From Candidatus Heimdallarchaeota archaeon (GTDB lineage Archaea; Asgardarchaeota; Heimdallarchaeia; Hodarchaeales; Hodarchaeaceae): a DNA stretch of 64,000 nt. The DNA is taken from NCBI GenBank assembly GCA_020353515.1, contig CP070695.1, positions 2,610,155 through 2,674,154 of the forward strand, written 5' to 3'. Shown here piece by piece: positions 11,660 to 63,623 of this stretch (positions are counted from its first letter, which is position 1; each line of letters starts with the position of its first letter). The notes beneath the pieces were generated by a model. The model was not told the DNA's origin. It was given only the letters and a program-made list of their open reading frames with translations, and made no database searches. A program made the position numbers and the translations under genes.

Positions 11660-12162
11660 TTATTGGAAAAACTTATCACAACTTTTCAAATCAGGAATAT
11701 CGCTCAAAACCTTTTTTAGATACCGTATAGATTCATGGGTAGCTTCTAAGATTTCATCTTCAATGAAGGGATAACCATCAAGTTTCTTAGGTTCAAGGGG
11801 AGTATCTATTAGAATGGGACTCACTTCCATATCGAATTTGTCTAGACAGAAATCAACCCAATCAGGAGGGGAGTCTGTTGGAATTGAAATTTCCGCGATA
11901 CCTGCTAAAATCGCCAGCCAGACACGAGTAACTGAATCAGGATTATAGCCGCCATCTCCTAATAGCAATAACCGACCCTGGGCACTACCCTGCCGACTTA
12001 ATTCAGCTATCCTTTTCCCTAGGTAGGAATATACATTCGTGGTTAATGCAAGGTGCCCTAGAAAGTCACGATAGTGGCCATCTGCACCACACTGCCAAAT
12101 AACGAATTCAGGATCAAATTGTTCCCAGATACAAGGTATAATGTTCTCGAAAGTCATTATAT
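11660..12162 (-). pseudogene. 5'-truncated diverged duplicate of the HDAC/AcuC C-terminal half
   Basis: Collinear with about 12757-13262; lacks the N-terminal catalytic HH and DxH motifs; GGGGY has become GDGGY. Confidence 0.85.
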
Positions 12163-12190
12163 ATGTATCTTAAGGATACCCCGACTTCAT

Positions 12191-12709
12191 GTGAAAAATT
12201 CATTAAAGAAAAATAAATTTAAGAATTATGATAGAATTTTAGAGGACGCTTTGAAAACTCTTTTCTCAATTGATGATGAATCTGATACCGTTTTTCTACA
12301 GGTCACAGTGTATCATCCCGATGAAGTAGCTATCTCAGGATGTAGAATGTTCAATAAGGAAGTTTTAACAACAATTCGTAAACTTGGTGGGGGTGTTGGA
12401 GTAATTAATTTTGGTGTCTTATGCAGCGGGAATGGAACAAGAAAATTGGGTGAAATTTATGAGGCCATTAAATGGGCAAAGACTCATCCTAGTGCCATCT
12501 CTCTCCCAGTAGGCTATGATAGAGTTATCTATGATGCAGAAGAACGATTAAAGAATCTAGAAATATAAGGCGTGACTAGAATCCAGCTCAAGGAGATGAA
12601 AGAGGTTTTTGGTGATGTTGATAATCCAAGAACAACTAATTGGGATGAATTCACAAAATTTTTGATTCGGTTTCTTGATTATTATCACAGCAAATTCATT
12701 TTTCAGTAG
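12191..12709 (+). pseudogene. Hypothetical ORF with in-frame premature stop
   Basis: Frame stays open for 46 codons past TAA 12566-12568 (GVTRIQLKEMKEVFGDVDNP...) to TAG 12707-12709. Confidence 0.45.
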
Positions 12710-12756: not shown

Positions 12757-13956
12757 TTAAATCTGTAGGAATTGTTTACAACCTTTCCAATCAGGAATGT
12801 CGCTTAAAACCTTTTTCAAATAGCGAATGGATTCGTGGGTCGCTTCTAAAATCTCATCCTCAATAAAGGGATAACCATCAAGTTTTCTCCAATCAAGTTC
12901 TGGATCTTCTAAACTGGGACTGACCTCAAAATTAAACTCTTGTAAACAATAGTCAATCCATTCAGGAGGAGACATTTTGGGTATCTCTACACCTGTAATA
13001 CTAGCCAAAATTGCTAACCAAACCCGAGCAACAGAATCAGGATTGTATCCTCCCCCTCCTAATAACAATAATCGCCCTTGTGCACTTCCCAGCCGACTTA
13101 ATTCAGCAATCCTCTTGCCCAAGTAGGAATATACTTTCGTGGTTAATGCAAGGTGCCCTAGAAAGTCACGATAATGACCATCTGCGCCACACTGCCAAAT
13201 AACGAATTCGGGGTCAAATTCCTCCCAAATACACGGAACAATATTCTCGAAAGTCATGATATACAGGTTATCCCACGTTCCTGGAAAGAATGGGATATTT
13301 ATTGTGTAACCAAGTCCTTCATTTTCCCCGATTTCATCATGGTGTCCTGTGCCTGGAAACAAGTAGCGTCCTGATTCGTGAGTAGAAATGGCTAGAACTT
13401 TTTTATCCCTATAAAAAGCATGTAATACTCCATCACCATGATGAACATCCGTATCAATATAAAGTACCCGCTTAATTCCATATTCTTGCTGGAGATACTT
13501 GATTGCAATAACTACATCGTTATAATAACAAAATCCAGCTGCTCTATCCTCAAAAGCGTGATGTAATCCCCCAAGAATTGCAAAAGCTTGTTGTACATCT
13601 CCATTTTGAATTCGTTTCACACCCTCAAGGGCTCCTCCCACCACTAAGCGAGCTGCTTCATGCATTTCTGGAAATACGGGACAATCACCAGTTCCCAACC
13701 CCATTCTCAATCGAGCTCCTCCTCCAGCTTCTGATAATGCCTTCATGGCTTTTAAATAGGGAAGAGAATGATAGAGAAGGATGTCTGAATCTGTAGCTGG
13801 AGAAGGGGTAAGAATTTGGATTTCGGGCAATTCGAACAGTTCAAGACTCTTAAATAATTGATAAGGGATAGTTAAACGTTTAGGATTCATAGGATGCCCT
13901 TCTCCTAAATTGTATTCAAGATATTGGTCTGACCATATAATCCCCGTTTTCACCAT
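12757..13956 (-). CDS. acuC: Zn-dependent histone deacetylase family / acetoin utilization AcuC
   Basis: HPMNPKR, GGLHHA, GFC, DTDVHHGDG, QCGADGH, GGGGY; ATG 13956 follows AGGTGA. Confidence 0.93.
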   Translation of the reverse strand: MVKTGIIWSDQYLEYNLGEGHPMNPKRLTIPYQLFKSLELFELPEIQILTPSPATDSDILLYHSLPYLKAMKALSEAGGGARLRMGLGTGDCPVFPEMHEAARLVVGGALEGVKRIQNGDVQQAFAILGGLHHAFEDRAAGFCYYNDVVIAIKYLQQEYGIKRVLYIDTDVHHGDGVLHAFYRDKKVLAISTHESGRYLFPGTGHHDEIGENEGLGYTINIPFFPGTWDNLYIMTFENIVPCIWEEFDPEFVIWQCGADGHYRDFLGHLALTTKVYSYLGKRIAELSRLGSAQGRLLLLGGGGYNPDSVARVWLAILASITGVEIPKMSPPEWIDYCLQEFNFEVSPSLEDPELDWRKLDGYPFIEDEILEATHESIRYLKKVLSDIPDWKGCKQFLQI

Positions 13957-14157
13957 ACTTTCTATCACCTTGATTACATTTTATCCCTTTTTATTGTTGA
14001 TAACTGTTCCTATTAGACTTATAGAGTAGCTTAAAATCCGTTCTATTACGATAACCAACAAATTCCCTAGGTAATCGTTAATCTTTTAAATTACCAGTAT
14101 AAATGTTGAATTGTCATTGACAATACTTGAAATTTAAATCACGGGGACAAAGTAAGA

Positions 14158-16161: not shown

Positions 16162-17094
16162 ATGAGAGAAAATATAATTCCAGAGGAATTTATTAACCGA
16201 TGGGAGAGATTTTATGGAACATCTCGAACCAAAACTATCGTTACCAATCTTAAACAAACTGATCCCAGATTTATTGTTCATAATTCACTGAAAACTGAAT
16301 TAAATTATTTAAAGTCACAATTAGAGAAAAAAGGATTTGAATTTGAGAAGGTAAAAGATTTTAATGGGCTATTTGTGAAGTTTGAACCTTTTAATATAGT
16401 TTCCACCCCTGAATATTTGGCAGGAATGTTTTCTATTCAAGCTATCTCTTCGTTAATCCCTCCATTAAGCATTAATCCTTCTCCAAACAATATTGTGGTG
16501 GATTTAACTGCCTCTCCAGGCATAAAGACTTGTTTATTGGCTCAACAGATGACCAATCAAGGCACGATTATTGCTATTGAAATATCAAAACAAAGAATAC
16601 CAGCATTAAAATCAAATGTTGCTAGAATGGGTGTTACAAACACCATTATTTTTAATTTTGACGCTTTATTGTTCCCTAAATTAGATATTACTGTGGATTA
16701 TATTCTTTTAGACGCTCCCTGTTCAGGATCTGGGCTTAGTCTTTCCAAAAATAAGCGATTAGAACCTAGAATATTAGATGACATACCTAGGCAATCACAA
16801 CGACAAAAAGATCTACTAGAAGCTGCTTGGAGACAACTAAACCCAGAAGGAACCCTTGTTTATTCTACCTGCAGCTTAGAACCTGAAGAGGGGGAAGTGC
16901 AGATCAGTAACTTTCTTGAACAACATGAAGAGGAAGTATTCCTTCTTCCTATTCCATTCAACATTGGTATGCCAGGTAATAAAACAAATTGGACACACTC
17001 TCTCCATCCTCAATTATCAAAAACCAAACGGATCTTTCCTAAACAAGGATATGACGGATTTTTCACAGCTCTGCTGAAAAAAGTGATTTTATGA
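16162..17094 (+). CDS. RsmB/Nop2/NSUN RNA m5C methyltransferase
   Basis: TPEYLAG, DLTASPGIKT, DAPCSG, YSTCS, DGFF. Confidence 0.92.
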   Translation: MRENIIPEEFINRWERFYGTSRTKTIVTNLKQTDPRFIVHNSLKTELNYLKSQLEKKGFEFEKVKDFNGLFVKFEPFNIVSTPEYLAGMFSIQAISSLIPPLSINPSPNNIVVDLTASPGIKTCLLAQQMTNQGTIIAIEISKQRIPALKSNVARMGVTNTIIFNFDALLFPKLDITVDYILLDAPCSGSGLSLSKNKRLEPRILDDIPRQSQRQKDLLEAAWRQLNPEGTLVYSTCSLEPEEGEVQISNFLEQHEEEVFLLPIPFNIGMPGNKTNWTHSLHPQLSKTKRIFPKQGYDGFFTALLKKVIL

Positions 17095-17636
17095 GATTTT
17101 ACAAGAAATTAGTAAATGAAGAGAAAAATTTGGTTGAGACAACCATCAATCATATTCTCGACTTTAATATCTCCAATATTATTGCAGGAAAAGAGCTTAT
17201 AAAAATTATTGGCCATAGATTCGATATATATCTAATTCAGCAGGAAGATTTGTCTCTATTCAATCTTTTCTCCACTCAGTTTCTTCAAACAAATTTTAAC
17301 ATTGTACATGCTAGAATAAAACTAGGCTTTTTCATTCATGAGAAATTCCTAATTGGTATTGAGTCACTCACGTTTCTTGCTCCTTATGCACGAAGAAGAA
17401 TTCAATTAGATGCACGTAATACAAATAATTTTATTTATGGTAAAGATGTTGATATTGACACTCTTTCATTAAAACAACAAATAAAACATCTTGATGATGG
17501 CCCCACTGTCATGATTTTTTCTAATACAGACATTCCAATTGGATATGCAAAGATTAGATCTAATGGAACAAATAAATGGCTGCAGAATTTGATAGATATC
17601 GGAATTTACATACGTTCAGAAAAAAGCGCATTTTAA
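17091..17636 (+). CDS. nip7: Nip7-like ribosome biogenesis factor (PUA domain)
   Basis: FIYGKDV, PIGYA, DIGIYIRSE; coupled to the NSUN gene. Confidence 0.75.
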   Translation: MRFYKKLVNEEKNLVETTINHILDFNISNIIAGKELIKIIGHRFDIYLIQQEDLSLFNLFSTQFLQTNFNIVHARIKLGFFIHEKFLIGIESLTFLAPYARRRIQLDARNTNNFIYGKDVDIDTLSLKQQIKHLDDGPTVMIFSNTDIPIGYAKIRSNGTNKWLQNLIDIGIYIRSEKSAF

Positions 17637-17645
17637 CGTTTGATC

Positions 17646-18674
17646 TTAGATCCTTAATGGAGAACGGCAGTTTTTGCAGAGAGTATCCTTACCTTCTAGG
17701 ATTTTGTTGGTTGTGTTGCATTTGTGGCAGTTAATGAAGATCATCTTCTCTCCAAAGTTGCCTAAGGTGCCTTGGCCAGCCAGAACAGATTTTTCAGCTT
17801 GTTTTTTCATTTTTAGAAATAGCGGGCTATCCACTCCACTTAAATTTCTCAATGAGTTTTTGAAATCGTCTAATTTTGTCGCTTGTTCTTGTTCTTTCTT
17901 CTTCTTTTTGAAATACTCCTTTCTTTGTTTCGGTGTCATCTTACTAATTAGCTTCAATTCCCTTAAGCGAGTATTATACTGATTACGTAATGAAAGAGGT
18001 AATTCAGAGAGAAATTCAGGTGAAAATTGTTTTAATTCTTCGAGGGGCATTTGAGAGAAATTAATTTCAATATTATTTTGCTTATGTAGGTTTTGGCCTG
18101 CATTTGAAGGAGGAGGGGGAGGGGGAGCGTTTTGAGATGAAGATAAATTGCTTTTTATTGATTTCAGATCAGATTCAATGTGTTTTCGGATTGTTATGAG
18201 GATCTCATCGATAATATCACTCATATAATCTCGCGATGAAGTGTTGTTAATTTTGGACTCCATATTCCGAATTTGTTGCTCTAATTCACCTATTTTTTTA
18301 TTTTGAGCAATAATTACTTCCCCTTTACGATAACAATCTAAGCAAACACCTGAAACTAACTCATTTTCCAAGGTCCCCTTACCACAAATCCCACAAACTT
18401 TAAACATTTCACCAAGATCGTATAATACCTTAGTTAAACTTTCACTTGAAGAATTTAATTCTTCTTCAACTGTAAGGACTGCTTTTCGCACTTCTTTACC
18501 AAGGGCGGTGAACATGAGTTCTCCTTCGTGCTCTATTTCTCTATCAAATTGTTTAGTTTCGTCTAATTTTCCGAGCTGAGTGAGAATGTCTTCTAAGTTT
18601 GTAAAAGGATTCTTTAGAACGCTCCCAACAGAAGTAAGCTTCTTAATTGTTTCTTGTTCTAATTTATCAGACAC
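17646..18674 (-). CDS. Hypothetical protein: Zn finger, coiled coil, polyproline, C-terminal Zn ribbon
   Basis: CGIC...CLDC, heptad segment KKIGELEQQIRNMESKI, APPPPPP, CHKC...CKNC. Confidence 0.75.
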   Translation of the reverse strand: MSDKLEQETIKKLTSVGSVLKNPFTNLEDILTQLGKLDETKQFDREIEHEGELMFTALGKEVRKAVLTVEEELNSSSESLTKVLYDLGEMFKVCGICGKGTLENELVSGVCLDCYRKGEVIIAQNKKIGELEQQIRNMESKINNTSSRDYMSDIIDEILITIRKHIESDLKSIKSNLSSSQNAPPPPPPSNAGQNLHKQNNIEINFSQMPLEELKQFSPEFLSELPLSLRNQYNTRLRELKLISKMTPKQRKEYFKKKKKEQEQATKLDDFKNSLRNLSGVDSPLFLKMKKQAEKSVLAGQGTLGNFGEKMIFINCHKCNTTNKILEGKDTLCKNCRSPLRI

Positions 18675-18684
18675 TTTGCTTACC

Positions 18685-19428
18685 TCATCTACGTTCTAAA
18701 GTCTGAGCTCGTCGGAGGAATGTTCGTGCGACCGTTCGTTCAATTGAATCAACCTCGGATCGACTTTCATTAATCACTACTGTAACAATCTTAGTAATTA
18801 AATCGAAATTTGGATCTGCAATTTGAGGAATACTCGATTTGAGGAGTTCAGCAGAGGTAATACCTCTTTGATTTGCTGCTGTTGTAATCAGATCTTGTTG
18901 CTCCTTAAGCACCTGAATTATCGAGGGATCAATATCAGAGCTAATATCTAAAGCTTGCTTTTTGAGAAATTCAATTTGTAATTCTCGATCTTTTAGGGTA
19001 CGGTAAAGATTATCCACGGTTTTTTGAAGTTCTTCAACCAGAGAAGACTGAAGGGGATTTATTTGAGACACTGTATCTTTAAAAACTCCAAGAGGATCAT
19101 TGATAAGGATATTCTTTTCTTGAACAATAATTTGTTGATAAAATTGCTCCCAGTAGGTTTTATGGGGCAAACCAATATATCTTCGACGCTGACCTTTCGG
19201 TAATGAAACTTTAACAGTAGCTACTTCTTTTTTTTCTTGTAAACGATTAATAGAACCATCGATCTTTCCCCTACTCCAATTCAAACGCGATGCCAACTCA
19301 TTGATTGTGATTGGACGCTCAAATGTTTCGATTCTTGAACGAAGGATTTGGTCTGTAACTTCTGCATTACCTTTTGGCAAATCTATAGCATCCAAGTATT
19401 TGGCTTTCTTGTTTAATATTGATATCAA
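18685..19428 (-). CDS. Winged-helix DNA-binding protein with coiled coil
   Basis: ITINELASRLNWSRGKIDGSINRL plus beta wing; coiled coil LVEELQKTVDNLYRTLKDRELQIEFLKK. Confidence 0.75.
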   Translation of the reverse strand: MISILNKKAKYLDAIDLPKGNAEVTDQILRSRIETFERPITINELASRLNWSRGKIDGSINRLQEKKEVATVKVSLPKGQRRRYIGLPHKTYWEQFYQQIIVQEKNILINDPLGVFKDTVSQINPLQSSLVEELQKTVDNLYRTLKDRELQIEFLKKQALDISSDIDPSIIQVLKEQQDLITTAANQRGITSAELLKSSIPQIADPNFDLITKIVTVVINESRSEVDSIERTVARTFLRRAQTLERR

Positions 19429-19435
19429 TGTGTTA

Positions 19436-19672
19436 TAGGCAAGTCTAAATCAAAATAGATTCCACTTTCTCAAAGTATCAAGAGTTACTTAATTTTAAGT
19501 AATTGAAACTGATATAATCATGTCTATATAAATTTATTTATATTGAAAAATCCGTTTTGGTATTATTAGATCGATAAAATATATATAGACATGTCTAAAG
19601 ATGTCTTTTTTATTAAGAATTATTCTAGGTTAATTTAGTGTAGAACTGATTATAGGATAAAAGGCGTGCCTA
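19436..19672. promoter_or_regulatory. Array of four related 12-bp palindromic boxes (consensus TAGRCATGYCTA)
   Basis: TAGGCAAGTCTA 19436, TAATCATGTCTA 19515, TAGACATGTCTA 19586 (perfect), AAGGCGTGCCTA 19661. Confidence 0.55.
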
Positions 19673-19768
19673 TATGACATAATTGAGTCTTTGCATAGAC
19701 TTAAGAGGTATATGAAGTCAAAAGCACAATAATTCGTAGCACATTTTCAGGTTCTTGATGTGTCATTT

Positions 19769-20591
19769 ATGATTTACATGATAAGGAACGGTCTTTTTGC
19801 TATTGATTATGAAATGAAATTAGTTCTAGCTATTATTGGGATCTCTCTGTGTATTTTATTCATTATCTTTTCTAAAAAACCGATTATCTCTATGTTTTTA
19901 TCACAGGAGTAGTTGTTTGGTCAATATTTGAACTAATGATTACCATTCTAGGTATCAGATCCAGTGTTGAACCCTCTATTTTTGGAATTGAATTGCACTG
20001 GTTGTTAGCGGGCATTATAAGGGGATCCTCTGAAGGTGCTGTGGTTGCAATTGTTGGGATTATCTTTGGCGACTACATTTCGAGTCGAAATCACATAAAA
20101 ATCGCCCTTCCAGCAGCCATCCTAATTCTTGCTTACTTTGTATCACGAACGCTTATCAATGGGCTTCCAAGCAAAGAAATTGGAGGGGCTGTCCTTTCTC
20201 GTAGAGAAATTTTCGCTTGGCCTTCTGTGCTCTTCTTTCTGTTCTTTATTTCCTTGTTATGATTTGGTATGTCTCTCAAAAGGATCCCCAAATTAAGAAA
20301 CGAGCTCGAAATATGTTCATTTCAACTGTGGTATTTTCTTCCATTTGGTCAGTTGCTCAATATGTCGCAAATACTCGTTGGATAGAAGTGAAAACAAATA
20401 CAACATTCATACAAGCTCCCCCTGTTGTTGAATTCTTGGCGTTTACGTGGGATATAATCTTTGAAATTTCTCTCTGTTATATGGCTTTTCTAGTTATTCC
20501 GGTAATGTTAAATTTGATCAAAAATCCCCAAGAGCTCTCTTCATCCATAACGGCCAGCTTCAAGCAGGAGATAGAGGAGGGTTATAACTAA
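19769..20591 (+). pseudogene. Multi-pass membrane protein broken by two frameshifts
   Basis: ATG 19769 frame (MIYMIRNG...IFSKK) joins the 19936 ORF frame at the A-run near 19874-19879, then the 20217 ORF frame near 20230. Confidence 0.6.
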
Positions 20592-21062
20592 AGCAGAGAT
20601 AATAAACCCAAAAAACCACCAAATTGAATAAATTGTACCAAACATTGAATTTATGGCATTGAGATTGAACGGATCTTGGACTACAGGAAAAGAGGGAAGT
20701 ACGAGTATATATAATCCTATAGCAGCTCCTATCACTAGTACAAAACTGAGTACAAAAAGGAGATTTATTATCCAATCAGTTTCTTTGTCCTCATCCCAGT
20801 TGAATATCCGTTTCGCAATCATTGGAAGCCCTAGAGACAGAACTAAGATTAAGATTATCACACAAATAAATACGATGACCGTGATAATCCCTAGAAATAT
20901 TAAATTATCTAAATATTCACGATTTAGAATAACTGCACCAATGGATACAAGAATAACAATTCCAAGATTGATCAATAGCCCGATAAAAACTATATCAATC
21001 CAAGTGGTTTTTATCGGTGTTTGTTCGTCAGAAATTGGTTCAGATAATGTATCAGAATCCAA
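20541..21062 (-). CDS. Four-TM membrane protein, hypothetical
   Basis: Four hydrophobic segments; TTG start after GGAG. Confidence 0.65.
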   Translation of the reverse strand: MDSDTLSEPISDEQTPIKTTWIDIVFIGLLINLGIVILVSIGAVILNREYLDNLIFLGIITVIVFICVIILILVLSLGLPMIAKRIFNWDEDKETDWIINLLFVLSFVLVIGAAIGLYILVLPSFPVVQDPFNLNAINSMFGTIYSIWWFFGFIISALVITLLYLLLEAGRYG

Positions 21063-21225
21063 AAAATCTCAGCTCCATCTATTAGATGAATAATAGTTAA
21101 TTCTAATGTTGTTTGTTAGCTACATTATATAACATCTTGCTAAGCGGACCATATTCTTTCACATTTAATAGATTAGTAATGAACCCTTTTTCAAAAAATC
21201 AAGTGGAAAAAATGAATAGAATTAG

Positions 21226-21277
21226 AGGGCATCGCTCCAGAGAGTAATCCAGCTTCTGTTGGCTCGTTAGGGCTACC
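21226..21277. repeat. Displaced copy of the RNase P RNA 3' end (att-like direct repeat, copy 1)
   Basis: 51/52 identity to 23508-23559 (single mismatch at 21273 vs 23555). Confidence 0.95.
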
Positions 21278-21390
21278 AATACAAATTTTTGATGTTATTT
21301 TACGCTTAAGGAAAAAACCTCAAGATTTAAGGGTTATTCTAAATACTAAACTGATTGAATTTTCTATTAAAATAAACTATCAAGATAATA

Positions 21391-21420
21391 ACATCTAGGA
21401 GTAGGACATCTAGGAGTAGG
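21391..21420. repeat. Perfect 15-bp tandem duplication ACATCTAGGAGTAGG x2
   Basis: Read directly at 21391-21405 and 21406-21420. Confidence 0.9.
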
Positions 21421-21516
21421 AAGATAAGGACTTTTAAACCTCAATAATATCAAGGAAATTTTAGAAGAATTTTGTTTTAGGCTCAAAATTCAAAATATAT
21501 TTCTTTTTGGAGGCGT

Positions 21517-23463
21517 ATATCAACGAGTAAAGGATTTTTAAAGGATTTAACAGAAGAAAATAATAGAATTGACAGAATTAAAACGTATTTATGGGAACAA
21601 AGTAAAAAACTCCCTCTTTTAGTTAAATTAAATGTACTTGCAATTGGAGTGGGTATAATAGGAGGATTAGGCTCATGGGTCTTTCGATTAGCGATTAACC
21701 TCATTTATGAGGCCTTTTTTTTCTTACCAATGCAAATTTTGAATTCTTTAGGATTATCTACCATTATTTGGGTACCTTTTCTTCTTACACCTATTATTGG
21801 GGGTTTAATCGTTGGTTATCTCACCTCTAAAGTCTCAAAAGAAACAAAAGGTCATGGTGTTCCCGAAGTTTTAGAGTCAGTTGCTTTAAACAACGGGAAA
21901 ATGAATTTAAGGATTCCTTTCATCAAGATTATTGCTTCTGCAACAACTATTGGATCTGGCGGATCAGCAGGCCGAGAAGGGCCGATTGCTCAAATAGGAG
22001 CTGGGTTTGCTTCATTAATAGGACAGAAATTGAATCTGTCTTCAAAAGAACTTCGGACTTTAGTTGTTTCAGGAGTCGCCGCAGGAATCGCTGCTACTTT
22101 TAATGCTCCGATTGGGGGATCTTTATTTGCTTTAGAAGTATTAATGGGAGAAGGGGGTACAACAGGGCTATTAATTCCAATTATTGTCGCAGCTGTTGTT
22201 GGTGTTGTAGTAGGACAACTTTTACTCGGCACTGACCCAGCTTTCATTGGATTCCCGGCTTTGGAATATCACGAGCCATATTTAATCCCTCTTTTTGTGA
22301 TTCTAGGGCTAGTTTGTGGAGCCGGTTCAGCTTTTTGGATTAAATTCTTTTACAAACTAGAAGATATTTTTGATAATATATTTGAGAAGTTCAAAATTCC
22401 TGGTATCTTGCAACCAGCTTTTGGGGGTGTATTTGTGGGTTTAACATTAGTTATAACATATTTTTTTGTTGGTGAACAGTGGGAAACAGTCACTATAATG
22501 GGACGTTCCTATCTTCCCATGGATGCTGTTTTTCAGGGTTCACTATTACAGGGATCGGTTTTGCTAGTTCTACTTACATTAATTTTATTATTTGTTTTGA
22601 AAGCCCTTAATACTGTATTTACAATTGGTACTGGTGGTTCAGGAGGTGTATTTGCTCCCACTTTATTTTTAGGGGTTATGTTAGGAGCAATCTTTGGTAT
22701 AATTGTAGACGATATTATCATTATAACCAATGTTCCGATACCTCTCCTCGCTTTATTGGGAATGGCTGCATTTTTCGCAGGGACAGGTCGTGCACCGTTA
22801 ACAGCGGTTATCATGACTGCAGAAATGACCAAGGATTATTTTTTAACCATTCCCCTTATGATAGTCGTTTCAATCAGCTGGATTGTTTCCATTCTTCTTG
22901 AAAAAGACAATATTTATACTTTGAAACTTATTCGGAGAGGAGTTGTCTTAAAGGAACCTACTGCTGATATCCTTGAAACAATCACTGTCATAGAAGCGAT
23001 GACCCCAAGGGATAAGTTGGTCGTAGTAGATACAAAAACAAGATTAGAAACAGTAATGGAGCTTGTACGAACTACTCGTCACGAGGGATTTCCAGTAGTT
23101 GAACAAGATATGTTCATTGGAGTAATCACTCTAAGTGATGTCCAAAAAGCGATGCATAGTTCTCCGAAAGATTGGAATGTATTTGATGTCTTAATAACGA
23201 AGAAGAGACCTCTTATTTGCATACACAAGGAGGCGACATTAATGCATGCTGTTCATATCATGGAAAGTAAGGATATTTCACGCCTTCCAGTGGTAGAAAA
23301 ATTTCCTAGTCAGAAAAACGAGTTTCCTAAGCTAATCGGTTGGATAACACACCATGATATCACAAGAGTCTACATTTCAGAAAAGGCACTTTCAACACTT
23401 CAAGCATCTGAAGAGCATATTTTTTCTTATCAAAATGGTCCTTCGGAAAACAAGAGCTCATAG
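21517..23463 (+). CDS. clc: CLC chloride channel/antiporter with two CBS domains
   Basis: GHGVPE, GREGP, F.AP, GGVFAP, EMT motifs and a CBS pair; frame is open from 21481, so the start (here ATA 21517) is uncertain; ORF track uses 21649. Confidence 0.93.
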   Translation: MSTSKGFLKDLTEENNRIDRIKTYLWEQSKKLPLLVKLNVLAIGVGIIGGLGSWVFRLAINLIYEAFFFLPMQILNSLGLSTIIWVPFLLTPIIGGLIVGYLTSKVSKETKGHGVPEVLESVALNNGKMNLRIPFIKIIASATTIGSGGSAGREGPIAQIGAGFASLIGQKLNLSSKELRTLVVSGVAAGIAATFNAPIGGSLFALEVLMGEGGTTGLLIPIIVAAVVGVVVGQLLLGTDPAFIGFPALEYHEPYLIPLFVILGLVCGAGSAFWIKFFYKLEDIFDNIFEKFKIPGILQPAFGGVFVGLTLVITYFFVGEQWETVTIMGRSYLPMDAVFQGSLLQGSVLLVLLTLILLFVLKALNTVFTIGTGGSGGVFAPTLFLGVMLGAIFGIIVDDIIIITNVPIPLLALLGMAAFFAGTGRAPLTAVIMTAEMTKDYFLTIPLMIVVSISWIVSILLEKDNIYTLKLIRRGVVLKEPTADILETITVIEAMTPRDKLVVVDTKTRLETVMELVRTTRHEGFPVVEQDMFIGVITLSDVQKAMHSSPKDWNVFDVLITKKRPLICIHKEATLMHAVHIMESKDISRLPVVEKFPSQKNEFPKLIGWITHHDITRVYISEKALSTLQASEEHIFSYQNGPSENKSS

Positions 23464-23507
23464 TTTTTTCACAATTACTGTGTTGGAGATTTTATTGATG
23501 AAAGAAC

Positions 23508-23559
23508 AGGGCATCGCTCCAGAGAGTAATCCAGCTTCTGTTGGCTCGTTAGGGTTACC
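23508..23559. repeat. att-like direct repeat, copy 2 (3' end of intact rnpB)
   Basis: Matches 21226-21277. Confidence 0.95.
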
Positions 23560-23882
23560 CCATCAGAGTTTCTGACATCAACCTAAGCGCTGCTCTCCAC
23601 GATCTCCGAAGAGATCATTATTTCAGCTTGCATTCACTGAGGATGCTCGTTTCACCGATACCCTACTCGTCCTCAGGAGATTAACTCGTCGATTGTTACC
23701 AGCGACTTCACTCCATCATAGCCATAAGAGTAGGGGCGTGTCGTTTCTGTAGCAGAGCCCAATCTCTCGATTGACAGCGAATAGCCACCAACAGGCACTA
23801 CCCGACTGTTCAGCGTACATGAATGGCTGGAATTTCCTCAGGTTTCAGGAGAAACCCGGAGTCAGACTTCTGCTTCGATGCC
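23510..23882 (-). ncRNA. rnpB: Archaeal RNase P RNA
   Basis: P1 GGCAUCG/CGAUGCC; conserved segments GAGGAAAUUCCAGC, ACAGAAACG, GUGAAACG, GCAAG, GCGCUUAG..GAUG, AACAGAAGCUGGAUUA; P4 pairing UCCAGC/GCUGGA. Confidence 0.93.
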
Positions 23883-24326
23883 GTGGTTATTAGGTTCCCT
23901 CTAGTTTATTAATCTTTTGAGGGTTTCACGTTCTAATCCTCTTGCCCAAACCTCTGGCCCTACAACCGTCATACGATTTGGATCCTATTTGCCTTATTGA
24001 ACAGATTTTTCGACAAGTGACTGAACTTATTCAATTTTTAATTTGGTTTCAACCAAATCTATTCACTTCATATGACCCTCACGTATCTTGACAATTTCTT
24101 TCACTTTTGGGCAAACATAAAATAGCATGAGATTGGATAATCGTTAAGTATGGTAAATAAGTCAATCCATCAGATGTATTCTTTTTTAAGCACCTTAAAA
24201 ATCCTTAAATACCCTTTTTAAACTTAAATAACAGGAAAATTTTAAATATGTTATGTGTACATAAATAATTATCCGATTATCTTAACCATAAGGATTCTGG
24301 AGGGTTAAGGCAAGGAGTGAAAAGAA

Positions 24327-24543
24327 ATGATTAAAGTCGCGTTGGTGGATTTTCTGGAGTAATTATGATCCTGATGAAATGAAAAGAGCAACCCTTCATG
24401 AGATATTCCATACCTATGATGCAAAACATGTAAGTGGTTATTATATTATGCGGCATGAGATTCAATATGGTGGGTGGGTTCTCCACAGTAATACAGATTC
24501 CACCGTCAGTAGTAACGATGTTCACTTCGATGGCCCGCCTTAA
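24327..24543 (+). pseudogene. Metzincin-type Zn metalloprotease C-terminal remnant
   Basis: HEIFHTYDAKH (24397-24429) followed by YIM Met-turn; upstream SD+ATG (24327) is out of frame. Confidence 0.55.
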
Positions 24544-24566
24544 AGAACAAGAATGGCTGTGAGAAA

Positions 24567-25259
24567 ATGAGTGGCTACGCCCATTTTGTTATAATAACTT
24601 TGACTTTACTCCTCTTAGCTTCTCCTACTATATCTATTGAGGGTGTGCAATCTGAGTGGTCTTCTTCTATAACAGTCAAGCGTTTTCGCTGGAAAGCGTT
24701 GAAATCTGAGTTACGGGATCTAGATACCCAGGAACAATATCGTGAGAATTATTTAATTGGGGGAATAAACATTCCAGGCGGAATCAATACAATTGCCCTC
24801 CGTGCAATCCCCCCAAATGATTTCGATTTTTTCAATGGTAGTAGACTCGACTTAAGTGTAACGATTGAAGGCGATATATCTCTTGACCCATTGCCCCAAA
24901 ACGGCTCAGATTACCATTTACTCCTACTTCCAATAAAAATTGATAATAAATCATTCTTTGAGGTGTTATTTGCAAAGACAGGCCTCTTAGAAAATCTCAC
25001 TCACTCTATTTTCCTGAATTCTTCGATTACTGACACAATCGCACGATCTTCCTTAAAATATAATGGTGTTCTTGATATTCTGTATGAGTGGGACATTACT
25101 ACAGGATTATTAGTTCGAAAGGAAGTTACAGCTCCCTCAGGATTGCAACTCATAATTGTACCCACAAGTGAAATCTCAGTTCCAGGATGGAACTTACCAA
25201 TAGTCCTCCTAACCGTTTTGATAATTAATTGGTGGCATAAGAAAAGAAAGAAGGATTAA
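24567..25259 (+). CDS. Secreted protein with PGW-CTERM-like anchor
   Basis: Signal peptide; YEWDITTGLL; C-terminal VPGW + TM + KKRKK. Confidence 0.7.
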   Translation: MSGYAHFVIITLTLLLLASPTISIEGVQSEWSSSITVKRFRWKALKSELRDLDTQEQYRENYLIGGINIPGGINTIALRAIPPNDFDFFNGSRLDLSVTIEGDISLDPLPQNGSDYHLLLLPIKIDNKSFFEVLFAKTGLLENLTHSIFLNSSITDTIARSSLKYNGVLDILYEWDITTGLLVRKEVTAPSGLQLIIVPTSEISVPGWNLPIVLLTVLIINWWHKKRKKD

Positions 25260-25393
25260 TTGTCTGATAGGGAATCAGATGTATAGGTCTCGAAGTTCAG
25301 TAATTTACAGGATCAAATGGATTAATGATGACGCCAAGAAAAAGAGAATTTCGTTATTTGCTTAACATCAATAAGACAGGGTGAGATTGAACA

Positions 25394-25807
25394 ATGCGAA
25401 AACAGGATTATTTAGCGCTCCTCCCAATTTTTCTTCTCTTTACCGTCTTGTTCTTGATCATTATAGTAATCCCAGTTGGGAGTCTACTCATAGTGATGTT
25501 TACTGCTAGCTATCGCCAAGATGTAATTATGATAACTCGTGCGAACGAGATGGAAAACATCACAGGGTCAATAGGGAATTTAACAGCAAAGAATCTATCA
25601 TCTGCCCCGAAACTCCTATCAGCATTACAGCAGATGGTTCAGGATGACAAAATAAACCAGAAGATAGTGGAAATCACTGTTAAAGAGCGGGATCACTTAG
25701 TTCAATTGTTTGAGGAGCTTAACTTTCCTTTGTCTTGTAATAATCCAATACATGTATATTTTGAAAATATATTACTTGAAATCATTCTTGCTGAAACTGT
25801 TTCATAG
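25394..25807 (+). CDS. Membrane-anchored hypothetical protein
   Basis: GGTGAG SD, N-terminal TM, soluble C-terminus. Confidence 0.6.
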   Translation: MRKQDYLALLPIFLLFTVLFLIIIVIPVGSLLIVMFTASYRQDVIMITRANEMENITGSIGNLTAKNLSSAPKLLSALQQMVQDDKINQKIVEITVKERDHLVQLFEELNFPLSCNNPIHVYFENILLEIILAETVS

Positions 25808-26003
25808 TTCTCTTTCCAGTGAAGGAAGCACGTTTTTGATAGGAGAAGCATTAGTGTTCTTTGGTAGCTCGGGTGAACCGAATGACCTAGAAAAATTGAT
25901 TAATTTGCTTACATTTAGATGTCTTTGGTTGACTGTGGAATCTTGAAGGCTTATACTGGGATCTCTAGTTAAGGAAAGCTAATTTTGAACATCGACTTGG
26001 CCG

Positions 26004-27392
26004 TTAAATAGGGATTTCAATCAAAAACTCTGATCCCTCATCGATTTTTGAGCTGACTGACATTTTCCCTCCATGTCGTTCAACTATTGTTTTTGTAATG
26101 TACAATCCTAGTCCCATCCCTTGTTTGTAGTATGAAGTTGATTGAGAAAAGAACGGTTCAAAGATTCTATCCATCTTATCATCAGGGATTCCAACACCCT
26201 GGTCTAGTATTGAGATGTTGAGACCTTTTCTGTCAAGTGTAATTCTTGCCTCAACCTCCGTAGCCTTTGGACTGTGGTGACAGGCATTTTCGATTAGATT
26301 GTAGATTGCTTGCGTCAAACGATCAAGATCCAACGAAAAAAGTGAATTCACCTCACGATCATTCTTAAATTCCAGTTTAATTCGTGTTTTTTCTTTCATA
26401 AGATTAATATCATATTCTAACGCAGTTTGTAGCTCATTGAAACGAATCAATCCTTTATCAATTGAAAATATTCCCTTATTTACATTTTCGACATCTTTAA
26501 TGGCTGTTATTTGGCGTTCCAGCTTTCTTGTGTTTCGTAAAAGCGCATCTATGATATTTTGGTCGTATCCGTCCTTTTCGCTATATTTTTTAGGTAATAA
26601 CTCTATAAATCCTTTAAGCAAAGTGATTGGGGTTCCCATCTCGTGAACAGTAATCTGTAAAAATTCGTTTAGTGCTTTTTCCCGCCTTAGACGACTCGAT
26701 GGCAACCATGAGACATCAGCGATAACACCAACCGAAGCAGGTTTTTGTGTTTGAGAAACCACTGGATCTACGCTAATGAGAACATCTTTGTTCTTCCCAT
26801 CCATCTGATAGATCTTCATTAGTACAAATTGATCCAATGACAGTAAAAATTCGTAAGTCATAATGAATTTAGTAATATCATGTCCAATTAACTGTGTGGG
26901 TGAGTTGAATCCCACAAGATCTGCAAACGCTTGGTTTGAAAATACTATTTGTCCCTCTGGGTTGGTTACGGTCATTCCAGCTCTTGTTGCTTCTATCAAT
27001 GATCTTAATCTTTTGTCTGAAGCCCGTAATGCGTTAAAGGCTCTCTTCTCTGTCGTAATATCCCGAACTACCCCATAAAGATATTTATCATCAACTGTAC
27101 CCACAGAAAGCTGTATGTTTACCTCAATATCAAGGTTTTTTCCTTTGGTTTCAATTATTTTTGGGTTATAATCTCTGAATGAGGTTAAAAACATTTGACC
27201 TTTTTTATCGAAAAAGGATCGAATATCGTAGCCAATAATTTCTGATAGTTCCACCTCTAGGATTTCACTCAATTTATCATTACCCCAAAGTATCTCCCAT
27301 TTATCGAGCTCCTGGATCCAAAAACCAATTTCTGCTTCCTTGAGCATTTTAAGTATAAAAGGGCTGTCTAATATGTTAGGAAACTGTTTCAA
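26004..27392 (-). CDS. PAS-PAS sensor histidine kinase
   Basis: Two PAS folds, H-box HEMGTP, N-box NLIENA, DQGVG, FEPFF, GMGLGL. Confidence 0.92.
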   Translation of the reverse strand: MKQFPNILDSPFILKMLKEAEIGFWIQELDKWEILWGNDKLSEILEVELSEIIGYDIRSFFDKKGQMFLTSFRDYNPKIIETKGKNLDIEVNIQLSVGTVDDKYLYGVVRDITTEKRAFNALRASDKRLRSLIEATRAGMTVTNPEGQIVFSNQAFADLVGFNSPTQLIGHDITKFIMTYEFLLSLDQFVLMKIYQMDGKNKDVLISVDPVVSQTQKPASVGVIADVSWLPSSRLRREKALNEFLQITVHEMGTPITLLKGFIELLPKKYSEKDGYDQNIIDALLRNTRKLERQITAIKDVENVNKGIFSIDKGLIRFNELQTALEYDINLMKEKTRIKLEFKNDREVNSLFSLDLDRLTQAIYNLIENACHHSPKATEVEARITLDRKGLNISILDQGVGIPDDKMDRIFEPFFSQSTSYYKQGMGLGLYITKTIVERHGGKMSVSSKIDEGSEFLIEIPI

Positions 27393-27720
27393 AGATCAAT
27401 TCTCCTTATTCCTGTCTTTCTAAATCTTTTGAAATTTTATAAAGATTCGTAATTAGAACGTGAAAGTATTTGTTCAATCCCCGAGTAATCTCTATATTGA
27501 TGAAGTGGCGAGGTTTAATGAAGAAATTCAACTGTTAACGGAGCCAAAAAGGGATAGACTTAGTAATAACAATTAATAGTGTTATTTTCGTCATTATTTT
27601 TTTAAGGAAAGAGGGGATGTTATCAAAGATCCATAATTTCGAAACATAATTCTGAAAATTCTTTAAGAGAAAATAATGCAAGGAAAACTGAACCAGAATT
27701 AAATGGAGTAACCTTAGAAA

Positions 27721-29553
27721 ATGCGTATTGTTGTTTTGGATACCGATAAGTGTAAACCCAAGAGATGTGTGAAGGAATGCCGTGGTTCCTGTCCAGTTGT
27801 CCGCTCAGGAACCGAAATGTTCGAATTTGAAACGCCTGTTTCCCAACCAATCATCTATGAACAGTTTTGTACTGGATGTGGAATTTGTCCAAAAGCGTGT
27901 CGATTTCATGCTCTCTCAATTATTAACACTCCTGAACGATTAGACAAAGACTTAACTCATAGATTCGGGAGAAATGGGTTCACATTATTTCGATTACCTG
28001 TTATCAAACCAAAAAAGGTGAATGGTTTAGTTGGTCAGAATGGAGTGGGTAAATCAACGGCATTAAAGATCCTATCTGGGGATATCATACCTAATTTTGG
28101 AGTTCATGAGGAGAAACCTACTTGGGAGCGTGTCCACGAGTATTACAAGGGAACTGAGCTCCAGAATTATTTCCAAAAAATGATTGAAAACAAAATTAAA
28201 TGTGTTCGTAAACCACAATACATTGATACCATTGCTAAACACGTTAAGGGAACTGTAAAGGATGTTATAACCCGATTTGATGAAAGAAACGTCCTTGATG
28301 AAATCCAAGAAGATTTAGCTCTTCAAGAAATCTGGAATCGTAACATTAAACTCCTCTCAGGTGGAGAACTTCAGAAACTAGCTGTCGCTGTAGCAATGGT
28401 TCGTGATATGGATATCTATCTATTTGATGAGCCTTCTTCCTTTCTTGATATTAACGAGCGTCTTCGGGTCGGAGTAGCTATTAGAAGCCTAAACGATCAT
28501 GGAAAGACTGTAGTTATTGTTGAACATGATTTAGCTGTGTTAGATTACCTTTCTGATTATGTTACTACTTTTTATGGCACTCCATCATCCTATGGTATAA
28601 TTTCCCAACCATATACCGAAAAAGAAGGAATAAATGTATTTCTTGATGGCTTTATCCCTTCAGAAAACATGAGATTCCGTGATTACTCTATTATCATTCA
28701 AAAATCGTCAGTAAGAGAGAAAAGTATTGTTTCTGACGAAATACTATCTTACCAGGATCTTTCAAAAATCTTTAAACAGAGTAATTTCTCTTTAGACGTT
28801 AGAAAAGGAATGATTCATCAAAATGAGATCATTGGAATATTAGGTCCAAATGGAATTGGAAAAACTACCTTTATAAAGATGTTAGCGGGCCTAGAATCCC
28901 CTACTTCAGGAACAGTAGATCGGGTAATTCTGGATAACCAACCAGATAATGAAAATGCTAATTCGACTGATGTTCTCCGAGTAGCGTATAAACCTCAATA
29001 TATATCTTTAAATGGAGACCAAACGGTAGAAGCTTTTCTCTTGGAAACAGGAGGAGCAATTGTCGCCACGTCCCAATTTCAAAGCGAGTTTATCCGTCCT
29101 TTTCAATTGACAGAGCTATTTGATCAATCACTTAAGTATTTGAGTGGAGGGGAACTACAAAAAGTCGCTATTGTAAGCACTTTAGCCAAAGATGCCGATT
29201 TATACTTATTTGACGAACCATCAGCGTTTTTGTCAATTGAGGACAGATTAACTGCAGCTAAGATCATCCGAAGACTAATTAAGAGTCGGAAGGCTGCAAG
29301 TTTTATTGTAGAGCACGATATCGTTTTCCAAGATTATGCAAGTGATCGGATAATTGTTTTTCTTGGACAATCAGGCGTTTATGGGAAAGCTTATTCCCCA
29401 TCTCCCGTTAGAACAGGGATGAACCGATTTCTTGGAAATTTAAAAATCACTTTTCGACGTGATCCTAAGAGTGGGCGTCCCCGAGTAAATAAAACTGATT
29501 CTAAGCTTGATCGCCTCCAGAAAAACCAAGGCGAATATTATTATGAGAAGTGA
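27721..29553 (+). CDS. rli1: ABCE1/RLI1 ribosome recycling ATPase
   Basis: N-terminal 4Fe-4S (CKPKRC, CTGCGIC), two ABC cassettes with LSGGELQ, GRPRVNK. Confidence 0.97.
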   Translation: MRIVVLDTDKCKPKRCVKECRGSCPVVRSGTEMFEFETPVSQPIIYEQFCTGCGICPKACRFHALSIINTPERLDKDLTHRFGRNGFTLFRLPVIKPKKVNGLVGQNGVGKSTALKILSGDIIPNFGVHEEKPTWERVHEYYKGTELQNYFQKMIENKIKCVRKPQYIDTIAKHVKGTVKDVITRFDERNVLDEIQEDLALQEIWNRNIKLLSGGELQKLAVAVAMVRDMDIYLFDEPSSFLDINERLRVGVAIRSLNDHGKTVVIVEHDLAVLDYLSDYVTTFYGTPSSYGIISQPYTEKEGINVFLDGFIPSENMRFRDYSIIIQKSSVREKSIVSDEILSYQDLSKIFKQSNFSLDVRKGMIHQNEIIGILGPNGIGKTTFIKMLAGLESPTSGTVDRVILDNQPDNENANSTDVLRVAYKPQYISLNGDQTVEAFLLETGGAIVATSQFQSEFIRPFQLTELFDQSLKYLSGGELQKVAIVSTLAKDADLYLFDEPSAFLSIEDRLTAAKIIRRLIKSRKAASFIVEHDIVFQDYASDRIIVFLGQSGVYGKAYSPSPVRTGMNRFLGNLKITFRRDPKSGRPRVNKTDSKLDRLQKNQGEYYYEK

Positions 29554-63529: not shown

Positions 63530-63623
63530 GCGCTGATGGTCTAGTCTGGTCTAGGACTCCAGCCTTCCATTCTCATTGAAGAGAAGATAGCTGGCTACCC
63601 GGGTTCAAATCCCGGTCGGCGCA
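63530..63623 (+). tRNA. tRNA-Gly(TCC) with 19-nt intron (63570-63588) at position 37/38
   Basis: Acceptor GCGCTGA/TCGGCGC+A, anticodon stem CCAGC/GCTGG, T-arm CCGGG-TTCAAAT-CCCGG; bulge-helix-bulge with CUUC/GAAG helix and 3-nt bulges. Confidence 0.95.

Follow-up and report, generated by a model that had tools for sequence, protein, structure and literature searches.

How does a chloride channel gene come to lie between an intact RNase P RNA gene and a second copy of that gene's 3' end? The question is posed by a 64,000-nucleotide stretch of DNA from a Candidatus Heimdallarchaeota archaeon (positions C1:2610155-2674154 of the closed 4.94-Mb source genome, here called G000), the whole of which we refer to as the window. 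Our analysis of the window and of genomes from the same genus indicates that gene cassettes have accumulated here into an additive island whose anchor is rnpB, the RNase P RNA gene, and that this island is common to a same-genus Asgard clade of six species. DNA has been inserted behind rnpB with duplication of the tail of the gene, related genomes retain the empty site, the site has been used repeatedly and has accumulated arrays of rnpB fragments, the packet holding the channel gene is old, and the island genes that we scanned contain no recognisable recombinase domain.

A repeat search of the window identified two direct copies of a 52-bp sequence, at 21226-21277 and 23508-23559, which agree at 51 of 52 positions and start 2282 bp apart; the sole mismatch is a C at 21273 against a T at 23555. 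The 47-nt core of the repeat matches twice in the window and had no match in any of 100 shuffles, and a genome-wide search found no third copy of the repeat in G000. The proximal copy belongs to an intact archaeal rnpB gene on the minus strand (23515..23877), to which the Rfam model RF00373 gave a full-length match (model positions 1-288) of 140.4 bits against a gathering score of 84 (E 2e-39). As Rfam places the end of the gene at 23515, the proximal copy (23508..23559, minus strand) consists of the last 45 nt of rnpB followed by 7 nt of trailer. The distal copy (21226..21277, also minus strand) is a displaced rnpB 3' tail, in which homology extends weakly to about 21292 (nhmmer match at 21224-21292, profile positions 303-372). 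Direct reading places both the inner boundary of the repeat and the mismatch within a small palindrome, GGGGTAACCC, at 23553-23562, and runs of A6 at 21193-21198 and 21207-21212, i.e. T6 on the rnpB strand, come after the distal copy. Between the two copies the only ORF (open reading frame) with family support is 21649..23463 on the plus strand, which encodes a CLC chloride channel/antiporter with two CBS domains (Voltage_CLC PF00654, E 1e-88; PF00571 CBS, two stretches, E 9e-19); its true start may lie further upstream. An earlier note on this DNA had described all of these features, i.e. the repeated tail with its single mismatch, the CLC-CBS gene as the only one between the copies, the boundary in a symmetric hairpin and the T-tracts behind the displaced copy, and each is confirmed here. 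The hairpin itself lies within an insert of ~25 nt that rnpB has relative to the Rfam consensus (window 23560-23590). This insert immediately precedes the 3' strand of the terminal helices, and across the genus its conserved form is GGGGTGACCC.

The genome is metagenome-derived and short-read unitigs break in the repeat, which could speak for a chance match or an assembly artefact. We regard this explanation as barely credible, given the absence of matches in the shuffles and the reads themselves. Logan contigs from four runs of two studies contain both junction contexts, one leading from the left flank into the distal copy and the other from the distal copy through the CLC gene into the rnpB copy, and two independently assembled relatives, G008 and G014, share this arrangement together with an orthologous flank. 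Logan unitigs end inside the repeat, as any repeat would cause them to, and circle or deletion junctions are unreadable from them. In three Logan runs other sequences are joined at 21225-21228 and at 23510; we take these alternative joints to represent other strains or species with different packets rather than proof of mobility. One more joint, from 20497 to 21422, is similar to the arrangement in another relative, G017, but it was too weak to use, being present in one contig at depth 2 with a side of 31.

The extent of the inserted DNA was determined from synteny, by comparing the window ORFs with the same-genus genomes using tblastn. All of these relatives are metagenome-assembled genomes (MAGs), some of them fragmented, and one (G003) is without an assembled full rnpB. 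In four genomes (G010, G013, G002 and G004) the site is empty: genes for an RsmB/F-like methyltransferase and a Nip7-like PUA protein are followed in order by rnpB and by the genes for ABCE1 and a Tsr3-like protein, with only tens of bases separating rnpB from its neighbours, and in G010 the Nip7-like gene directly adjoins the rnpB 3' end. In G000 these conserved flanks are represented by the Nip7-like PUA (UPF0113) gene on the left (17091..17636, plus strand) and the gene for an ABCE1/RLI-type ABC ATPase on the right (27721..29553, plus strand), and 5.9 kb (17637-23507) separate the Nip7-like gene from the rnpB 3' end, with 3.8 kb more on the 5' side of rnpB. Comparison with the empty sites therefore places the distal 52-bp copy within a larger insertion and not at its edge; no rnpB remnant was found at the outer island edge (17636/17646).

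We then searched for rnpB fragments with a profile made from 14 rnpB genes of the genus. This revealed 16 partial copies of rnpB in six genomes (G000, G003, G008, G011, G014 and G017), and two further 3' fragments, on G014:C84 and G003:C204, bring the total to at least 18, either behind rnpB or in contexts of the island type, although because the six genomes are related these do not amount to 18 independent events. All of the fragments linked to rnpB lie downstream of it and on its strand. Nearly all share a 3' limit at the gene end plus about 10 nt, while their 5' ends are at profile positions 152, 169, 185, 189, 190, 211, 233, 238, 246, 262, 273, 289, 292, 292, 303, 312, 323 and 328 (these boundaries were read from alignments to the profile and are accurate to within a few bases), and their lengths range from 37 to 228 nt. 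There are five fragments within 9 kb in G011, four across the 19 kb from rnpB to CLC in G008, two to four in each of G003, G017 and G014, and only one in G000. One contig of G017 breaks off precisely where rnpB ends on its 3' side, which is to be expected of a repeat.

The fragments divide the arrays into packets of 0.6-10 kb that contain ordinary genes, e.g. for a radical SAM/SPASM protein with a methyltransferase, a PIN toxin pair, NadA, PadR and ArsR regulators, a P-type ATPase, an Mrp subunit, ABC transporter parts, NosD-like proteins, GNAT and DUF3267 proteins. Cargo is found on both strands and some packets are multi-gene; others are merely 0.6-1.4 kb, leaving no room for an integrase. 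Clustering of the ORFs indicated that most packets are present in one genome only. The empty sites in four relatives and the fragment arrays in six genomes bear out the proposal of the earlier note that DNA inserts at the 3' end of rnpB, and support the view, drawn from these genome comparisons, that it does so recurrently. The same note had proposed a search of relatives for empty sites and for other cargo accompanied by integrases; the empty sites and the other cargo, closed by rnpB fragments, were present, and the integrases were absent from the scanned ORFs.

The CLC packet in G000 is not a recent arrival. CLC orthologues are present in 14 of 21 same-genus genomes (72-92% amino acid identity), and in all six clade genomes CLC is the most distal part of the array. 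Compared with the G000 protein, the orthologues are 92% identical in G017, 84-85% in G003, G014 and G008, and 79% in G011, which is paralleled by the ABCE1 flank (91-92% in G014 and G017, 72-77% in outgroups), so that CLC divergence appears to track species divergence and looks vertical within the clade. Furthermore, in G008 and G014 an rnpB fragment occupies the same site upstream of CLC, and its outer flank is orthologous to that of the distal copy in G000. The shared position and the alignable flank show that the packet predates the split of G000, G008 and G014. The CLC islet is thus the innermost remaining packet of the 5.9-kb island and not a fresh mobile element. Of the earlier suggestion of an integrase-less islet, the lack of a detectable integrase stands, but the idea of a discrete recent 2.3-kb element does not.

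Despite this age, the two copies in G000 are nearly identical (51/52, i.e. 98%), whereas the fragments preceding CLC in G008 and G014 are only 86-89% identical to the rnpB genes of their own genomes. The two G000 copies also have changes in common that are not in the rnpB genes of the relatives. Near-identity in so old an arrangement points to recent gene conversion, or to renewed excision and re-insertion, in the G000 lineage. It could alternatively be argued that the distal 52 nt were duplicated locally and kept for a function, as a terminator, promoter element or RNA motif, without any insertion; such retention would account for the near-identity of an old copy, which moreover is intergenic, is upstream of CLC and has T-runs after it on the rnpB strand. 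We consider this improbable. In G008 and G014 the copies at the orthologous position retain only 86-89% identity and G017 is without the copy, the fragments in the relatives have arbitrary lengths and unrelated neighbours, and the empty sites show that insertion happened.

The order of the packets differs among G000, G017, G008 and G011. The gene for a 173-aa predicted membrane protein (20541..21062, minus strand), which behaves as a small cargo gene in its own right, is distal to CLC in G000 and G011 and proximal to it in G017, and the radical-SAM packet adjoins rnpB in G008 and is the fifth in G011. In G008 it is the distal 180-nt fragment, f2, that is closer to rnpB (97.8% identity, against 94.4% for the proximal f1), so that position in the array is no guide to age. 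The shuffled order and these identities mean that growth solely at the rnpB end is insufficient to explain the arrays, and that recombination among the copies would be sufficient. Recent transfer of the radical-SAM packet between G008 and G011 was considered and rejected, as the packets (86% nucleotide identity, 79-90% amino acid identity) are no closer than core genes.

The same layout was found at protein-coding genes. In the outgroups, CLC orthologues (72-77% identity) are at a different locus in each lineage examined, mostly with non-conserved neighbours, which supports the view that CLC behaves as movable cargo, as far as gene positions can tell. In one of the outgroup cases, G013, the gene for a NosD-like protein of 1584 aa and CLC together lie between two copies (81% identity) of a 95-nt stretch from the 3' end of an Ldh_2-family gene (locus L063, 3877-3971 and 11359-11453); the second copy is in frame through the stop codon, and the orthologous site in G000 (about 507,455 to 507,513) is empty. 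The same CLC cargo is thus present in the same layout at a protein-coding target. Within the window itself, self-comparison showed that the gene 12757-13968 (minus strand) has a second copy of its terminal 486 nt (165 codons) lying 1.1 kb downstream, with 78.6% nucleotide identity (attached tail 12778-13263, displaced tail 11678-12163), and an ORF, 12074-12568, lies between the copies and overlaps the displaced one. The relatives have a single copy of this tail. The displaced copy has an open frame and is nearer to the G017 orthologue than the attached tail is (84% against 78% amino acid identity). Informative sites in the pair divide 26 to 26 in the 5' part and 9 to 35 in the 3' part, a weak gradient for which the best cut gives p 0.003, uncorrected for the number of cuts.

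Self-comparison of the whole G000 genome showed that at short spacing direct repeats greatly outnumber inverted ones. Repeats of 35-400 nt that are 0.5-20 kb apart comprise 68 direct and 3 inverted pairs, and those more than 200 kb apart comprise 97 direct and 101 inverted pairs. Many of the direct pairs are at gene ends and bracket unrelated ORFs. The repeats are not at tRNA genes, judged against an incomplete list of 15 tRNAs (aragorn without intron search). A separate family of repeats was observed at G000:C1:3092445-3105709, where a 62-nt promoter- and leader-like unit (with a AAAACCTTTAT box, and GGAGG towards its end) occurs eight times at intervals of 0.7-3.2 kb, each time before a different ORF; some copies have longer versions of 111-159 nt in common, and the unit has no match in Rfam.

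Searches for a recombinase that could have assembled the island gave negative results. Among ~65 island ORFs from eight genomes, including the main unnamed ones, Pfam and PHROGs detected no integrase, resolvase or transposase domain and no viral or plasmid hallmark gene, and PHROGs found nothing relevant in 10 unnamed cassette ORFs. The tyrosine recombinase family PF00589 has two to three members in each of the genomes G000, G008, G011, G017 and G003, all of them at other loci. No tyrosine or serine recombinase gene was found in or beside the element; the genome-wide search covered PF00589 and not the serine recombinase or transposase families. The conserved distal ORFs of the island were considered as hidden recombinases and rejected, as they encode a Zn-ribbon coiled-coil protein, a winged helix-turn-helix (wHTH) coiled-coil protein and a multi-pass membrane protein. 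A circular or attP-bearing free form of the DNA was likewise not found: the conserved 28-nt rnpB tail had 0 matches in viral contigs, the one contig recovered in a metagenome scan with the rnpB tail carried an ordinary full rnpB, and a scan of genome contigs re-found only MAGs of the same genus. The excised-circle junction for which the earlier note proposed a read search was not found, although Logan unitigs, which break in the repeat, cannot show circles.

How, then, was the island built? The explanation that we favour, and to which we assign an even chance, is homology-anchored insertion by a Campbell-type single crossover, carried out by host recombination. An incoming circular DNA would carry an rnpB tail together with its cargo and would recombine with the tail of the chromosomal rnpB, so that a complete rnpB is restored and the old tail and older cargo are pushed outwards with each insertion. 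The crossover would be driven by homology alone, rnpB serving as the best-conserved anchor between diverged relatives (it is about 91% identical between the species of the clade). In G000 only the CLC packet is left between rnpB and a fragment, the two copies having later been homogenised by gene conversion or by a renewed cycle of excision and re-insertion. As Campbell-type insertion predicts, the duplications are direct and of arbitrary length (5' boundaries from 152 to 328, and protein-gene tails of 95 and 486 nt). Homology-driven insertion would explain why fragments are long and of arbitrary length, why packets can be tiny and why protein-coding genes are also targets, and it would account for the shuffling, the conversion and the choice of rnpB.

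Several observations weigh against this explanation. Homologous recombination is inefficient at only 78-90% identity, and tyrosine integrases are classically recognised by the displaced 3' tails that they leave at stable RNA genes. The fragment boundaries are partly clustered: 289-292 is common to G008_pre and G008_post, f1 and f2 of G008 both start at 185-190 with ~15 nt of upstream junction in common, and four boundaries cluster at the GGGGTRACCC hairpin, which is what a site-specific crossover would give. About half of the island ORFs are without a known family, so that a novel recombinase is possible among them, and neither a circle nor an excision junction nor a donor was seen in viral or metagenome contigs or in Logan unitigs, the last being unable to resolve a circle junction. 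Finally, some of the direct repeat pairs in G000 are tandem paralogues, and the genome-wide counts therefore overstate the effect.

The main competing explanation, a serious one that we rate at somewhat below an even chance, is site-specific recombination with the rnpB 3' end as attB, by a recombinase that acted in trans, has been lost or was never resident, the fragments being att scars; in essence this is the interpretation of the earlier note. The inserted DNA would have been either elements with their own integrase or integrase-less packets mobilised in trans, as CIMEs (cis-mobilisable elements) and integron cassettes are. The geometry is the same as in tRNA and tmRNA islands, with an intact gene, co-oriented displaced 3' fragments and packets stacked behind. 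Boundaries recur, at 289-292 twice independently and at 185-190 with a common 15-nt junction, and those of G000 and G003_f2 fall in a near-palindromic hairpin. Each genome has one or two non-Xer tyrosine recombinases that could act in trans, the majority of tycheposon islands are likewise without a resident integrase (bioRxiv 10.1101/2020.12.28.424599), and archaeal integrases with relaxed activity exist, e.g. the pTN3 integrase of Thermococcus, which catalyses homology-dependent recombination (review PMC8371274). However, not even a fragment of a recombinase was found in the ~65 scanned island ORFs from eight genomes, viral contigs do not match the rnpB tail, the 10 or more distinct 5' boundaries over 180 nt would need many specificities, fragments of up to 228 nt exceed the usual att identity blocks, and the layout recurs throughout the genome at the tails and 5' ends of unrelated protein-coding genes. 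On the sequence data alone, the homology-driven and the site-specific explanation cannot be told apart.

If insertion is homology-driven, it need not be confined to rnpB. We suggest, more tentatively and as something that we hold to be possible rather than probable, that gene gain in Asgard archaea of the Heimdall/Hod group is commonly integrase-independent, with circularised DNA of diverged relatives landing by homology on the best-conserved sequence. The anchors may be the rnpB tail or the tails or heads of conserved protein genes; each landing would duplicate its anchor and so add to a cassette array, and packets may be re-excised and re-inserted through the repeats.

Islands behind tRNA and tmRNA genes are textbook material. 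The rnpB island resembles such islands and prophages (Williams 2002 model; Islander, PMC4383910) in its regenerated stable-RNA gene and displaced direct 3' fragment, in the empty sites of relatives and in the reuse of the same site; it differs from them in using the RNase P RNA gene as its target, in that neither an integrase nor another mobility gene was found, in having packets down to 0.6-3.7 kb in size and in its very variable fragments, of 37 to 228 nt. It may also be compared with the tycheposon islands of Prochlorococcus (bioRxiv 10.1101/2020.12.28.424599), which have arrays of partial tRNAs and where older insertions are pushed distally, partial target copies are scattered in the cargo and separate its modules (here in the relatives), and most islands have no resident element. 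Tycheposons are, however, defined by elements that carry an integrase; neither this nor replication hallmark genes of the tycheposon type were found at the proximal end in the scanned island ORFs, and the rnpB island differs in its target and in its host, an Asgard archaeon.

Cargo-only units between recombination sites, movable in trans and shuffled in order among relatives, are also typical of cis-mobilisable elements (CIMEs), which are att-flanked and integrase-less, and of integron cassettes. In the rnpB island no cognate integrase, attI/attC structure or helper was identified, and there is no tyrosine recombinase at the locus, the repeats being pieces of a host gene, i.e. rnpB fragments; these features, like the presence of cargo on both strands and of multi-gene packets, do not match those of an integron. 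The prophages e14 and phage 21, which bear integrases, insert at icd and bring a diverged replacement of the 3' end of the target gene. The attached and displaced tails of the G013 Ldh_2 gene and of the pair at 11678-12163/12778-13263 in the window are similarly diverged in-frame alleles, but they flank inserts made up of ordinary genes, 0.6-7.5 kb in size. Campbell-type insertion-duplication likewise duplicates a homologous segment directly, at any length, and needs no resident recombinase; it is known chiefly as a laboratory tool or from rearrangements, and we found no description of it as a natural builder of cassette arrays behind an RNA gene. The earlier note knew of no precedent in archaea for such use of rnpB, and none was found in full-text searches or in the literature read (the archaeal tyrosine recombinase review PMC8371274, the Atabeyarchaeia mobile genetic element paper and the Islander/TIGER papers), in which rnpB is not described as an integration target.

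The remaining parts of the island and its surroundings are as follows. The distal part (17637..21225) is absent from the empty-site genomes, as judged from synteny, ORF clusters and translations. From their translations, its ORFs include the Zn-ribbon coiled-coil ORF (17646-18674, minus strand), the wHTH coiled-coil ORF (18685-19428, minus strand) and a split gene for a 270-aa membrane protein (19936-20591, plus strand). The two ORFs of the last, 19936-20262 and 20217-20591, jointly match a single multi-pass membrane protein of 266-274 aa in G008, G014 and G017, and in a Logan contig from run X1 an additional C after 20248 would rejoin them in one frame; an assembly indel or a strain variant therefore probably accounts for the split. 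Upstream of rnpB, on its 5' side, the variable stretch 23878..27720 contains two unnamed ORFs (24567-25259 and 25394-25807) and a gene for a PAS histidine kinase (26004-27392). It is absent in G010, G013, G002 and G004, and G014 and G008 have other genes there; no duplicated rnpB 5' pieces were found with it, nor by the genus rnpB profile. In G010 and the G000 clade rnpB is oriented with its 3' end towards the Nip7-like gene, but in G013, G002 and G004 towards ABCE1, and in G016 and G001 the entire block on the rnpB 3' side is inverted; the two orientations and the inverted block make the rnpB ends look like rearrangement breakpoints. Elsewhere in the window, Rfam identified a tRNA gene at 63530-63623 with an insert of ~21 nt after the anticodon loop, a probable intron.

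What goes beyond the textbook here is an island behind the gene of the RNase P ribozyme, built of very small cargo-only packets in which no recombinase was found. Annotators of these genomes should treat rnpB fragments as scars of insertion, and should not take them for the pseudogenes of another ribozyme. Of all archaea, the group to which the hosts belong is the nearest to eukaryotes, and the large size of their genomes is generally attributed to the acquisition of genes. A homology-anchored landing-pad route, if true, would provide a concrete mechanism for the growth of Asgard genomes, and duplicated gene tails would then be a marker for recent acquisitions. If the route is indeed integrase-independent, the rnpB island would be the clearest instance of a mechanism that operates genome-wide.

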